Source: Escherichia coli
GTDB taxonomy: Bacteria; Pseudomonadota; Gammaproteobacteria; Enterobacterales; Enterobacteriaceae
NCBI RefSeq assembly: GCF_024298765.1
Contig: NZ_CP101210.1
Direction: 5' to 3' (one strand)
DNA length: 64,000 nt
Positions 38,267-43,002 of this stretch are shown here, piece by piece. Every line of letters begins with the position of its first letter. Position 1 is the stretch's first letter. The notes below the pieces were generated by a model. That model saw nothing but the letters and a program-made list of their open reading frames with translations, was not told the DNA's origin and made no database searches. The position numbers and the translations under genes are program-made.

Positions 38267-38956
38267 TTACGAGGCGATCGCTGCAATAAAGCGTGTCGTT
38301 ATCTGCTGCGGACGAGTGATTGCCCCCCCAACCACCACGGTATGAGCGCCTAATGTCAGGCAACGTGCGGCGCACTCCGGGGTGTCGACATTCCCTTCCG
38401 CCACGACCGGAACGCTGACCGCTTTCAGGACCTCACGTAAGAATCCACAGTCATTTTCCGCCAGCACATGCCTGGCAGTTTCTGCGGTATAGCCGTAGAG
38501 CGTAGTGCCCACACAGTCAAAACCCAGACGTTCAGCTGTCACTGCCTCTTCTACTGTTGCTATATCTGCCATCAGAAGTATGGACGGGTAGCGAGCGCGG
38601 ATCTGCGTGACCAGTTCTTCCAGCGTCTGACCACCAGGGCGCGGGCGCGCAGTAGCATCTAGGGCAATAATTTCCGGCTCAACGGTCATCAGCTCATCCA
38701 CTTCCCGGAGAGTGGCCGTGATAAACACCTCACTGCCAGGGTAATCGCGTTTGATAATCCCTATCATCGGAAGGGAGACAATCTCTTTGATAGCACTAAT
38801 ATCCGCCACGCTGTTGGCACGGATACCTGCAGCACCACCTTGTGCTGCCGCCAGCGCCATACGTGACATAATAAACGGACTATGTAGAGGCTCATTTTCC
38901 AGAGCCTGACAGGAGACGATTAATTTACCTTTCAGGGAATCCAGTACAGTTTTCAT
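38267..38956 (-). CDS. N-acylmannosamine-6-phosphate 2-epimerase-like (NanE family)
   Basis: 229 aa; LIVSCQAL...[37 protein letters not shown] motifs parallel E. coli NanE as recalled. Confidence 0.7.
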
Positions 38957-40551
38957 TACGATAAAATCTCTTCGACTTCGTTTTTAATGATGGTGACATG
39001 AGGGCCATAAATCACCTGAACGCCGTTGCCGCGAATAATCACGCCACGCGCTCCGGCCACTTTCAGCGCAGCTTCATCTACCTTACTGCTCTCTTTAACC
39101 GTCACGCGCAGGCGCGTGGCGCAACAGTCCACCTCTTCCAGATTCTCTTTGCCTCCCAGCCCGGCAATGACTGCCGCTGCGCGTTCACTCTGAGGCTGGC
39201 CGGATTCAACCTGGGTTACGTTCTCACGCCCCGGCGTCAGCCAGCCAAAGCGGTTAATCAAATAGCGGAAAGTAAAGTAGTAAAGGAAGAACCACGGTAT
39301 TCCCACTATGGGGACATACATCCAGTTTGTTTTAGCTTCCCCCTGCAACACGCCGAAGAGAAGGAAATCGATAAGCCCGCCCGAAAAGGTTTGCCCAATA
39401 GTGATATGTAAAATATGGGCGACCATAAACGCCAGACCATCGAAGAAGGCGTGAATTACGTATAATACGGGCGCGACAAACAGGAAGGAGAACTCAACAG
39501 GCTCAGTGATTCCCGTCAGGAAAGAGGTCAGGGCTGCCGACAAAAGTAGTCCGGCGACAACCTTTCTATTCTCCGGCTTTGCAGTATGGTACATTGCCAG
39601 ACATGCGCCAAGCAGGCCAAACATCATGGTGATAAAGCGCCCGGACATAAAGCGAGCGGTACCCGCGTAGAACTGCTGCGTATTCGGATCGGCAAGTTGG
39701 GCAAAGAAAATCCGCTGCGTACCTTCAACCAACTGGCCGTTGACGATTTCACTGCCGCCCAGCGCCGTCGTCCAGAACGGCAAATAAAAGATATGGTGTA
39801 AACCCAGTGGACCGAGCATACGCAGGATGAAGCCGTACAACAGCGTCCCCAGATAGCCCGTCGCATCCACCAGGTCGCCCAGTCCAAAAATGAGTTTCTG
39901 GAAATGCGGCCACACCACCGTCATAACCGCACCCACTACTATCGCGGCAAGGGAGCTGATAATGGGTACAAAACGAGAACCACTAAAAAAACCGAGAAAC
40001 TGAGGTAGTGAGACTTTATTGAAACGGCTATGTAAAGTGCAGGTGACGAGACCAATCACCACCCCACCAAACACACCAGTTTCCAGTGTCTGAATACCAA
40101 GCGTCATCCCCTGGCCAACTGAAGCGGGGTTCTTGTGCGCCAGCGTTCCGTTGAGCGTTAATAAGGCGTTGATGGTGGCATTCATCACCAGAAACGCCAG
40201 CAATGACGCAAGCCCGGCAGTGCCTTTATCCGATTTCGCCAGCCCCACGGCGACGCCGACTGCAAAGAGTACCGACAGGTTGGCAAACACAATAGAACCT
40301 GCGCTGGTCATGATTGTGAATATTGCCTGCAACCAGTCGGCATCTAAAAACGGATAAGCCGTCAACGTGTTTGGATTTGACAACGCGCCACCAATCCCTA
40401 ATAACAGCCCTGCTGCGGGCAATACCGCAATCGGCAGCATGAAGGATTTTCCGAACCGCTGCGCTTTTTCAAACCATCCCCCCGATGAAGCGCCGCTAAA
40501 CATTTGCATCATTTTATCATCTCCTCGATTTTTGATGAAAATTTTTACCAT
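38956..40551 (-). CDS. PTS EIICB component, glucose/maltose/N-acetylglucosamine family
   Basis: Polytopic EIIC domain followed by C-terminal EIIB domain with CCATRLR active-site motif; likely true start at MMQMF... a few codons inside the ORF. Confidence 0.8.
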
Positions 40552-40677
40552 AATTATTCTTATAAATAAAAATCACCATCAAAATCTAAGAAGTCGATCA
40601 TACTTTTTTAAAATGTCTGGCATCAATCCCCTCCTTTCCGTCACACTATCAACAGATAAACGCATTAAGGATTTTAC

Positions 40678-41502
40678 ATGTCAGAAAATGAAAACCTGCT
40701 GCTGAGATTGCGCCAGAGCGTTGATGGATATAGCCGAACACAACAGAAGCTGGGAGAGTTTGTACTTAGCGATCCGGCAAAAGTTGTCTACCTGACGATT
40801 ACCGAACTTGCGCGTGAAAGCGGCACCAGCGAGGCTAGCGTCACACGTCTGTGCCGAACGCTTGGGTGTAAGGGCTATAACGAATTCAAAATGGCGCTGG
40901 CACTCGATCTCCGACAAGTACAGTTTGTAGAGCACGGCGGTGATGAGATTGACAATGTGGTCAATGAATCCGTGCAAGCAATACAGGACACAGCAAAATT
41001 ACTCGACAGAGCCTTGCTGGAAGCAGCCGCGCTTGCACTGCATCAGGCTCAGTCAGTGCAGATTTATGGCGTAGCAGCCAGTGCCATTCTGGGGGAGTAT
41101 TTACATTATAAACTCCTGCGTCTGGGGAAACCCGCACAATTGTTCAGCGATATGCATCGTGCTGCCATGAACGCCACAACACTTAGTAAAAACACGTTCG
41201 TGGTGGCGATTTCCAGTTCTGGATCCACGCGCGATCTGCTGCATGTCGTAAAACTAGCGCGTAAGCAAGGTGTGCGTGTACTGGCGCTGAGTAATACACC
41301 GCGCAGTCCGTTAGCTTCGCTGAGTGATATTCAACTGGTCGCGGCCAAACCGGAAGGACCCTTGAGTGCCGGCGCGCTGACTGCCAAAGTGGGAGTGATG
41401 CTGTTGGTAGAGCTACTCACCACATCGCTGATTGCGCTGGATGACCAGTACAGCGAGGTGAGCCAGAAAACAGCCAGCGCGACCCTACCGCTACTGCTTT
41501 AA
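40678..41502 (+). CDS. RpiR/MurR-family transcriptional regulator (HTH + SIS domain)
   Basis: N-terminal HTH (TITELARESGTSEASVTRLCRTLG), C-terminal SIS phosphosugar-binding domain; divergent from the PTS gene. Confidence 0.8.
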   Translation: MSENENLLLRLRQSVDGYSRTQQKLGEFVLSDPAKVVYLTITELARESGTSEASVTRLCRTLGCKGYNEFKMALALDLRQVQFVEHGGDEIDNVVNESVQAIQDTAKLLDRALLEAAALALHQAQSVQIYGVAASAILGEYLHYKLLRLGKPAQLFSDMHRAAMNATTLSKNTFVVAISSSGSTRDLLHVVKLARKQGVRVLALSNTPRSPLASLSDIQLVAAKPEGPLSAGALTAKVGVMLLVELLTTSLIALDDQYSEVSQKTASATLPLLL

Positions 41503-41658
41503 AGACATAAAAAACCGCCGAAGCGCTGGGTGCTCCCCATGAATCAGTGATAATAAACCAACATCATATTCTGGTAGGTTCTGGCGAGGTGATTAAAAAC
41601 GGTGCTCAGCACCGTTCGTTTTTAAATTAGCGAGGAGTATCGTAAGATGCTCTTCCCC

Positions 41659-43002
41659 CTACTTCAGAAAATCCTTCACATCCAGTAGAATAAACTCGTT
41701 GTCATCCGCCATATTAGGCCAGCGGCTGGAGGAAAACGGGAAGTTATTATCGTTGCCTACGATGATGTGGTTAGTGTCAACCACATCCACGTTCTCGATG
41801 GTGAAGAACGGGAAGGTCAGCACACCGTCGTTCAGCGGCTTGCGTGCCAGCTTGTTCGGATCCTGAATCTTCATCAGGTCAATATAGCCCAGTTTTTCGA
41901 CAGGTTTTCCGACGTTAGTGTCCGAGAAAGCAATTTTATACACCCGTTTGAACCTGGCTACTTGACTGAAGCAGTTGTTGGTCGGCGCGCCGGCGACGCA
42001 GGCTTTATCCGCCGTGCCTTCGCCGTTATCACGCTCGATCACCAGTCCGTGGGTATCATCTATCATATTGAAGTCGCCGATGGCGTTCTGGTTGTCTTCC
42101 AGCACGTACTGCCAGCTGCGACCAGTCCAGGCCTGCTGTTTGGCATCGAACTCCAGCACACGCAGGTAGCGTTTTCCGTCAACGTTCTCGAACTGCTCAC
42201 CGTCCCACAATGCCCCTTCCAGCAGCGGATACAGCTTACTGCCGTCCGGCGAGATGGCCATGCCTTCAAAGCCTTTGGAACGCGCCACCTGGAAGTTCAG
42301 CTTACCGTCCGGAGCGCTAGGTAGAGTCAGCGTCGGGTTGTCCGGCGATTTAACCACCTTACCGTCCACTTCTGTGTCGAACACCGCCAGCACCTTGCCG
42401 TTCAGGTCGGTCTTGATCAGGTAAGGACCGAACTCATCACCGATCCATAAGGCATCGTCGGAAAACTGGAAGCTTTCCGGATCAAAATCGCTGCCGGTCA
42501 GATAGCGTAGTTCGGTGCTCTCGTTGATGATGTGGAACGGCACCTTTTTATCCGGATCATGCAGGAACAGCGTCTTCAGCGGTACTACCGAGCCGTCTTT
42601 GAAATCTATCTTGTATTGGTTGAGGTACAGCATGGCGTCCGGGGAGTTGGCTTTGCTGCCGAAGCCATTGTCAGTCAGCACCCAATAGGTACCGTCGGGC
42701 ATGTGTTTGATACCTGAGTGGCCCTGCAACGGCTGACCATTGATCGGCAGGCTGAGTCCTGTCAGGCGTTCTGCGGATTTGCCCGCCACGCTGCCCAGCT
42801 CGGTGACGCGTTTGCCGCTGGTGTATTTGCCGCTCTGTTGCAAATCGCCCGGCGCATCCTTCGGTGTTGAAACAGCGGATTTTGCCGGCAGAATTGCATG
42901 CCCGGCCAGCGTTGCCTGCACCGGCTGCGCTTTGGCCCACAGGTTGGCGCTCAGAGCCATGCAGCCAACCAGTATAGCCAGCCGGATTTTGGAGTTGTGC
43001 AT
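41659..43002 (-). CDS. Secreted protein of the phytase-like / esterase-like beta-propeller family (tentative)
   Basis: 447 aa with signal peptide; repeated GxxxL/DG-rich blades; assignment from recollection of proteins annotated this way, not verified. Confidence 0.4.
   Translation of the reverse strand: MHNSKIRLAILVGCMALSANLWAKAQPVQATLAGHAILPAKSAVSTPKDAPGDLQQSGKYTSGKRVTELGSVAGKSAERLTGLSLPINGQPLQGHSGIKHMPDGTYWVLTDNGFGSKANSPDAMLYLNQYKIDFKDGSVVPLKTLFLHDPDKKVPFHIINESTELRYLTGSDFDPESFQFSDDALWIGDEFGPYLIKTDLNGKVLAVFDTEVDGKVVKSPDNPTLTLPSAPDGKLNFQVARSKGFEGMAISPDGSKLYPLLEGALWDGEQFENVDGKRYLRVLEFDAKQQAWTGRSWQYVLEDNQNAIGDFNMIDDTHGLVIERDNGEGTADKACVAGAPTNNCFSQVARFKRVYKIAFSDTNVGKPVEKLGYIDLMKIQDPNKLARKPLNDGVLTFPFFTIENVDVVDTNHIIVGNDNNFPFSSSRWPNMADDNEFILLDVKDFLK

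Follow-up and report, generated by a model that had tools for sequence, protein, structure and literature searches.

Which of the genes at positions 38267-43002 of the 64,000-nucleotide stretch of Escherichia coli DNA analysed here (contig NZ_CP101210.1; the whole stretch is called the window below) belong together, and which sugar do they serve? The genes encode a NanE-like epimerase, a glucose-family enzyme IICB (EIICB) of the phosphotransferase system (PTS), an RpiR/MurR-family regulator and a secreted phytase-like protein, and the original prediction treated the four as one candidate block for the utilisation of amino sugars or phospho-sugars. The results of this analysis showed that the functional unit is a discrete module of three genes at 38181-41525, to which the phytase-like gene does not belong. 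This unit is probably a self-contained module for the utilisation of N-acetylmannosamine (ManNAc). Its features are as follows.

38181-38266, minus strand: left edge of the module, nanE-queE intergenic DNA with ca. 16 nt from the 5' end of queE
38267-38956, minus strand: nanE, a predicted N-acetylmannosamine-6-phosphate 2-epimerase of the Firmicute-like type, 229 amino acids (open reading frame and profile scores)
38956-40512, minus strand: EIIA-less PTS EIICB of the glucose family, 518 amino acids, putative transporter and phosphorylator of ManNAc
40513-40677: divergent regulatory region of 165 bp with a promoter-like site and two candidate operator repeats
40678-41502, plus strand: RpiR/MurR-family, NanR-like regulator, 274 amino acids, putative repressor sensing ManNAc-6-phosphate (ManNAc-6-P)
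41503-41525: right edge of the module, 23 nt past the stop codon of the regulator gene

The stop codon of the EIICB gene and the start codon of nanE share one base (...TCG TAATG AAA..., junction at 38956), and the regulator gene diverges from the EIICB gene across the 165-bp intergenic region, both as originally described. The EIICB start is likely at 40512, which is the RefSeq choice and has a GAGGAG Shine-Dalgarno sequence upstream, while the longest open reading frame (ORF) starts at 40551 (531 amino acids). All three module ORFs are full length, and an Rfam scan of 35000-47500 gave no match.

The extent of the unit was determined from its relatives. One genome per species was scanned for close relatives of the EIICB, which gave 80 loci, and the neighbours were identified by tblastn. 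nanE adjoined the EIICB ortholog in 77 of the 80 loci, which represented three bacterial orders including Bacillales and Selenomonadales, and 55 of the 58 Enterobacterales loci had the divergent regulator (59-95% identity), two of the remaining three being truncated. The phytase-like protein, the UgpB of the island and the lysozyme inhibitor encoded near the module were found in none of the 80. Individual loci lacked one partner: that of Yersinia pekkanenii has EIICB and the regulator with no nanE detected nearby, and that of Candidatus Arsenophonus triatominarum has EIICB-nanE without the regulator. Across many Enterobacterales the genes occupy one chromosomal site, eno-[regulator<>EIICB-nanE]-queE, which was seen in Citrobacter, Enterobacter, Lelliottia, Raoultella, Leclercia, Cedecea, Dryocola, Rahnella, Hafnia, Ewingella and others. 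When the window was compared by blastn with the loci of Citrobacter, Enterobacter and Lelliottia, DNA homology was sharply bounded at 38181 and 41525. The leftmost ca. 16 nt (38181-38196) are homologous to the 5' end of queE; in one locus (L005) homology extends 16 nt into queE (the QueE tblastn match starts at 9318 and homology runs until 9333), and the same left boundary was seen in a decayed E. coli eno-queE copy (L003). This remnant marks the excision of the module from the chromosomal eno-queE locus. The constant boundaries and the eno-queE synteny, thus, indicate that the three genes are a discrete module that moved from eno-queE into mobile DNA of E. coli. The closest non-E. coli DNA relative among the 80 retrieved loci was that of a Citrobacter genome (93% identity), and the module derives from the chromosomal eno-queE site of Citrobacter-like Enterobacteriaceae.

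Within E. coli the module is mobile. A survey of 5426 complete genomes gave some match in 558 (ca. 10%), and all four genes were present at ca. 100% identity in 147. A three-gene allele of 96% identity lies in another island in ca. 300 records, e.g. that of NCTC86, and ca. 20 further records showed 80-90% identity; in XJ5.2, the one examined among these, the copy at the ancestral eno-queE site is decayed, its EIICB gene being truncated and the regulator gene missing. IncFIA/FIB/FII conjugative plasmids from hens carry the module at 93.4% identity without the phytase-like gene (e.g. pF344-1, NZ_OY754422.1, positions 6001-9288 of L089). Some E. coli have the phytase-like gene alone, beside the island ugpB at pheV. 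In E. coli the module is therefore carried by genomic islands and IncF plasmids, and it is found decayed at eno-queE.

The fourth gene and the elements next to it lie beyond the right edge.

41598-41616, plus strand: terminator-like GC-rich hairpin with a T-run (terminator scan), between the module and the phytase-like gene
41659-43002, minus strand: secreted PF13449 beta-propeller protein ('esterase-like activity of phytase'), 447 amino acids, a neighbour outside the module
43106-43110: left copy of the CGGCT target duplication flanking IS2
43111-44441, minus strand: insertion sequence IS2, 1331 bp, with orfA at 43985-44395 and orfB at 43122-44027
44442-44446: right copy of the CGGCT target duplication flanking IS2

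If the four genes formed one block, the secreted phytase-like enzyme could free a sugar or phospho-sugar for import by the PTS. The adjacency of the four genes in the 147 genomes would fit this, and so would the 96%-identity allele, in which ca. 130 bp of junction DNA are retained on the side of the phytase-like gene, up to an IS1, and which thereby suggests an old junction within E. coli islands. We nevertheless consider such a block very improbable. The phytase-like gene was absent from all 80 non-E. coli loci and from the IncF plasmid copy, the conserved DNA ends at 41525, and its orthologs stand alone in unrelated contexts. Moreover, the gene faces the regulator gene, as had been described, and this convergent orientation means that it cannot share a transcript with the module; the operator-like motif described below was not found upstream of it, and IS2 now splits it from the sequence further upstream. 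Its proposed place in the operon was therefore rejected. On the strength of the non-E. coli loci and the plasmid copies, which are strong evidence, the phytase-like gene is unrelated to the module; this gene and IS2 are island neighbours without a functional link to it. The E. coli variants were dropped as the main argument for separability. The three-gene-only and the phytase-only variants are each bounded by IS1 (11457-11476 in the NCTC86 locus, L002; 7985-8001 in the WP2-S18-ESBL-08 locus, L004), and both contain the 99-bp junction 41557-41655, within which the terminator-like hairpin lies. They thus fit deletion derivatives, and IS1-mediated deletions from a four-gene ancestor are suggested as an explanation for them.

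We then turn to what the three genes encode. The epimerase matched PF04131 (1.3e-69, 233.8 bits against a cutoff of 27) and NF002231 (316.1 bits, cutoff 189). It showed 61% identity to Staphylococcus aureus NanE (1Y0E/6VVA; E 1e-78), while the Salmonella NanE structures 3Q58/3IGS gave E 1e-37, so that it is much closer to the enzymes of Gram-positive bacteria and Fusobacterium than to canonical enterobacterial NanE. Six residues are important in the S. aureus enzyme according to mutagenesis, namely Gln11, Arg40, Lys63, Asp124, Glu180 and Arg208 (PMC8482478). All six are kept in the window protein as Q17, R46, K69, D131, E187 and R215, and its PMIGIIK and VGGAITR match the signature motifs xPxIGIxK and VGxAxTR. 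The protein is therefore a predicted ManNAc-6-P epimerase with all of these catalytic and binding residues. A nanE apart from nanAKT is also reported for Citrobacter freundii, Edwardsiella and Cronobacter, in a report that mentions no PTS (PMC3716653).

The EIICB carries PTS_EIIC (PF02378; 1.1e-88) at residues 34-372 of the 531-amino-acid ORF, corresponding to 21-359 of the 518-amino-acid protein, and PTS_EIIB (PF00367; 2.1e-15). The motif GITE lies at residue 334 of the latter protein and CATRLR, with the phosphorylatable cysteine, at residue 464. No EIIA domain was found in the EIICB and no EIIA gene within the module; the nearest EIIA gene, ca. 6 kb off, belongs to an ascorbate-type PTS, which is a different PTS family. 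By precedent of other EIIA-less permeases of the glucose family, the EIICB would depend on EIIA-Glc (Crr) in trans. It fell under the cutoff of every NCBIfam equivalog tested (PtsG, MalX, NagE, GlvC, MurP and TreB), with 482 bits against 632 for MalX, 445 against 553 for NagE, 421 against 647 for E. coli PtsG and 36 against 516 for MurP, the last through the EIIB domain alone. Its orthologous group spans Enterobacterales, Bacillales and Selenomonadales at 69% identity or more; the relatives in the last two orders share 69-75% identity with the window permease, and nanE is almost always adjacent.

The regulator consists of an N-terminal HTH_6 domain (PF01418; 9.3e-19) and a C-terminal SIS domain (PF01380; 3.4e-19). 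Its best PDB match by far was 4IVN (E 1.5e-68, 44% identity across residues 3-273), which is the NanR of Vibrio vulnificus crystallised with ManNAc-6-P (PMC12713135, PMC9177960); RccR gave 5e-32 and E. coli MurR 1.8e-17. The SSSGST phosphate-binding loop is kept in the alignment with 4IVN, the comparison of the ligand sites having covered the phosphate loop only. The regulator is therefore NanR-like, and it may sense ManNAc-6-P and act as a repressor.

In the divergent region a promoter scan gave the promoter-like site TTGATG-N18-TATGAT (minus strand, 40626-40597), in which TATGAT is the conserved -10-like element. Downstream of this site on the same strand lie two operator-like repeats, TGATGGTGATTTTTA at 40567-40581 and TGGTAAAAATTTTCATCA at 40533-40550. 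An alignment of 57 distinct intergenic regions from Enterobacterales showed the conserved blocks taTgA.c, TG.Tg.tAATTTTCA and T.TGgTAAaAATTTTcAtCa, and the consensus sequences of the related repeats were TG.TG.TAATTTTCA and T.TGGTAAAAATTTTCATCA. The second repeat motif had no close match elsewhere in the window, where one further site with three mismatches was present. Two adjacent sites have also been reported for MurR and for V. vulnificus NanR (PMC12713135), a pattern that the paired repeats fit, and the two repeats are thus candidate operators. A search for a CRP site by eye gave only a TCACA half-site within the conserved block AGTGTGGCGGAAAG, and no claim is made for it.

The combination of an RpiR/MurR-family regulator with a permease of the glucose superfamily recalls murR-murQP, and nanE recalls nanATEK, so that a system for N-acetylmuramic acid (MurNAc) or a canonical system for the sialic acid Neu5Ac (N-acetylneuraminic acid) had to be weighed; the original prediction had likened the block to MurNAc or ManNAc systems. 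The gene content refutes the first two. Neither the region nor the 52 kb annotated in the colinear record encodes MurQ, NanA, NanK or NanT: no etherase gene was present among the ORFs and annotated genes of the region, and NanA, NanK and a Neu5Ac transporter were absent from the ORFs of 35000-47000 and from the annotation of window 1-52543. The MurP score named above, a MurR model score of 85 bits against a cutoff of 408 and the far weaker structural match of the regulator to MurR than to NanR point the same way, and we assign the MurNAc or canonical sialic acid reading a negligible probability. What stands of the earlier likeness is an amino-sugar or phospho-sugar system of the ManNAc type. 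The absence of a kinase had been taken to leave the substrate unclear. Indeed, none was found among the ORFs of 35000-47000, and no ManNAc-capable kinase is annotated in window 1-52543 of the colinear RefSeq record, whose sole kinase there is the sensor histidine kinase PgtB. The conclusion drawn from this fails, since a PTS permease itself yields the 6-phosphate: no kinase is needed because the PTS phosphorylates the sugar on import, and EIICB plus NanE would make a complete route from ManNAc to GlcNAc-6-phosphate (GlcNAc-6-P; GlcNAc is N-acetylglucosamine).

We propose that the module works as described below. EIICB would take up ManNAc with phosphate delivered via EI, HPr and EIIA-Glc/Crr of the host in trans, and ManNAc-6-P would be released in the cytoplasm. 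The translationally coupled NanE would convert it into GlcNAc-6-P, which the core enzymes NagA and NagB would convert into fructose-6-phosphate. The NanR-like regulator would bind both repeats, which closely follow the EIICB promoter, and block transcription after initiation, and ManNAc-6-P would release or remodel the regulator, making the operon inducible by ManNAc. The bundling of a second nanE with a transporter makes sense because the canonical nan operon is not induced by ManNAc in Salmonella (PMC11745405).

The assignment of ManNAc as the transported sugar derives from gene linkage and from the relatives of the regulator, and several points weigh against it or against the scheme of regulation. 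Among the NCBIfam models, TIGR02002 (glucose-specific IIBC) matched the EIICB best, with 587.2 bits, 4.6 bits short of the cutoff of 591.8; uptake of glucose or glucosamine therefore retains some probability. SP1684 of Streptococcus pneumoniae, the only tested glucose-family PTS adjacent to nanE, gave a weak phenotype for glucosamine and not for ManNAc (PMC3302838), and deletion of the nanE-linked PTS of Listeria left growth on ManNAc unimpaired (PMC10667646). Orthology and synteny with the eno-queE locus are clear, but literature searches gave no experiment on the EIICB orthologous group or on its operon, and no experimentally defined ManNAc-specific PTS of the glucose family. The operators were assigned from conservation alone. 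In addition, RpiR regulators may activate, as do Lmo2795 of Listeria (PMC10667646) and NanR of S. pneumoniae (PMC12713135), and repression is therefore not certain.

The TIGR02002 score and the SP1684 phenotype would both fit a permease that imports another sugar, such as glucose, glucosamine or GlcNAc, with NanE having another role or running in reverse to make ManNAc-6-P. Glucose-6-phosphate, glucosamine-6-phosphate and GlcNAc-6-P, however, need no NanE, and yet nanE is adjacent in nearly all of the loci and coupled in the window; the closest characterised relative of the regulator, moreover, binds ManNAc-6-P. To our knowledge, Enterobacterales have no ManNAc-6-P-consuming pathway other than NanE. 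We regard import of another sugar as unlikely, though of appreciable weight, and ManNAc as the probable substrate.

The proposed ManNAc module resembles several known systems in part. STM1127-STM1131 of Salmonella enterica is likewise accessory, horizontally acquired and dedicated to ManNAc rather than to Neu5Ac, and in it, too, a second nanE (NanE2) accompanies a repressor of the MurR/RpiR family; ManNAc induces it without involvement of the canonical NanR regulon (PMC11745405). Of its parts, the regulator and nanE alone are matched in the module. The Salmonella cluster uses the sodium-solute symporter STM1128, for which a kinase is still needed, and additionally encodes a NanM-like epimerase, a NanC-like porin and ManS, a small RNA from the 3' untranslated region, whereas the module has a PTS EIICB, would need no kinase and contains no porin or mutarotase-like gene. 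It would thus be a functional analogue of that cluster and not a member of it. V. vulnificus NanR shares with the regulator the HTH_6 and SIS domains, the SSSGST loop and the divergent position from an operon containing nanE. Its effector in Vibrio is ManNAc-6-P, and as repressor of the nan cluster it controls the full Neu5Ac pathway (a tripartite ATP-independent periplasmic transporter, nanA, nanK, nanE and nagA), whereas here only EIICB and nanE lie opposite the regulator.

SP1684 (EIIBC) and SP1685 (NanE) of S. pneumoniae also combine an EIIA-less permease of the glucose family with an adjoining nanE, and they are induced by ManNAc under an RpiR-type NanR that binds ManNAc-6-P (PMC3509027, PMC12713135). 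They differ in belonging to a large nanAB regulon with sialidase and an ATP-binding cassette transporter, in having an activator as regulator and in the weak glucosamine uptake noted above. The lmo2795-nanE region of Listeria monocytogenes again joins an RpiR regulator, PTS components and nanE, and its nanE is required for growth on ManNAc; unlike the module, it has separate EIIA and EIIBC, extra ROK, HAD and oxidoreductase genes, and an activator (PMC10667646). The same chemistry, ManNAc-6-P to GlcNAc-6-P and on through NagA and NagB, is performed in E. coli K-12 by ManXYZ and the NanE of nanATEK-yhcH (PMC10667646). That route differs in its mannose-family PTS, in the distant NanE and the unlinked genes, and in a GntR-type NanR that responds to Neu5Ac.

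The module is an ordinary accessory sugar module, an expected variation on the well-understood catabolism of amino sugars, and involves no new principle. E. coli K-12 handles ManNAc by ManXYZ together with a nanE that ManNAc is not known to induce. Plumbridge and Vimr (1999) reportedly found K-12 to grow poorly on ManNAc because this sugar does not induce its nan operon. A self-contained, ManNAc-inducible cassette of PTS and NanE would lift both of these limits, that of the ManXYZ transporter and that of the non-induced nanE. The breakdown of host sialic acid first yields ManNAc. If the proposal is true, the module would have spread among avian and extraintestinal E. coli, through islands and IncF plasmids, under selection for foraging on ManNAc within the host. 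Such selection has been proposed for the unrelated STM1127-1131 of Salmonella, which affects competition in the gut (PMC11745405). The chances seem to us evenly balanced that the EIICB group is the first in the glucose-family PTS to be dedicated to ManNAc with high affinity and specificity, and that, together with its own NanR-like switch for ManNAc-6-P, it allows ManNAc to be scavenged independently of sialic acid catabolism. The substrate assignment would then cover a large conserved, so far unassigned branch of the glucose-family permeases.

The phytase-like ORF next to the module is also intact. Its product matched PF13449 (5.4e-61, 207.4 bits against a cutoff of 27.6), which, with the domains given above, completes the profile annotation of all four proteins, and its N-terminal sequence has a Sec-type signal peptide by eye. 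It shares 68-85% identity with proteins of Serratia, Providencia, Pectobacterium, Polaromonas, Cupriavidus and Azospirillum; the orthologs of Serratia and Providencia stand alone in unrelated neighbourhoods, and some sources label the orthologs 'glycerophosphodiester phosphodiesterase'. The protein is unusually conserved across beta- and gamma-proteobacteria (mean column identity 71%), with many invariant Asp, Glu and Asn residues, and a structure search found no solved sequence relative. By description the gene matches orf34 of the Shigella resistance locus (SRL) island, which is listed as periplasmic and likewise annotated 'esterase-like activity of phytase'; no PTS or epimerase is named in the account of that island (PMC6980539). 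The sole hint at phosphate scavenging comes from a distant PF13449 family member of a cyanobacterium, which is strongly induced by phosphate limitation (PMC9846622). Inspection by eye for a Pho box upstream of the gene gave a single CTGTCAT half-site ca. 10 nt upstream of TACAAT, for which no claim is made.

IS2 lies 108 bp beyond the start of the phytase-like gene with a 5-bp duplication, as the original prediction stated; the duplicated CGGCT stands on both flanks. It has the length of 1331 bp, the terminal inverted repeats and the orfA and orfB that characterise IS2. The empty site with a single CGGCT is found in E. coli WP2-S18-ESBL-08; the insertion is therefore a genuine transposition event. 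The element occupies the upstream region of the phytase-like gene.

The setting of the module is a large mosaic island with hlyE, the fec operon, pgt genes, an ascorbate-type PTS with transketolase, a YadA-like adhesin, a lysozyme inhibitor and many insertion sequences. The window is colinear with, and 99.98-100% identical to, the chromosome of a chicken-derived E. coli, strain 104. hlyE, the complete fecIRABCDE (ferric citrate) and pgtP/pgtCBA (phosphoglycerate transport) lie at about 4899-5783, 7023-14568 and 20808-27031. The fec genes are also present on the Shigella SRL island. A second accessory sugar-phosphate module, at ca. 28809-34064, is made up of a LacI-family regulator, an ascorbate-type PTS (IIA, IIB and IIC) and a split transketolase, and in NCTC86 a different allele of the LacI and ascorbate-type PTS set likewise lies beside the three-gene module. 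Upstream of the module are a YadA-like trimeric autotransporter of 437 amino acids with coiled-coil repeats (35237-36550, plus strand), a small protein with a sigma-70 region-4-like HTH (36612-37067, plus strand) and an MliC/PliC-type inhibitor of c-type lysozyme (37424-37762, minus strand; NF010363, 155.7 bits, cutoff 127), which possibly make up a small virulence or host-defence trio. On the other side, an orphan ugpB for an sn-glycerol-3-phosphate binding protein (45833-47149, minus strand) has no ugpAEC downstream, and an IS110-family pseudogene (44697-45698) stands in the expected place of ugpA. A link between the phytase-like gene and ugpB is unsupported, as this pseudogene lies between them and the orthologs elsewhere are not beside ugp genes. 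In WP2-S18-ESBL-08 the phytase-like gene, an IS110 remnant and ugpB likewise stand together, next to a pheV-associated integrase.

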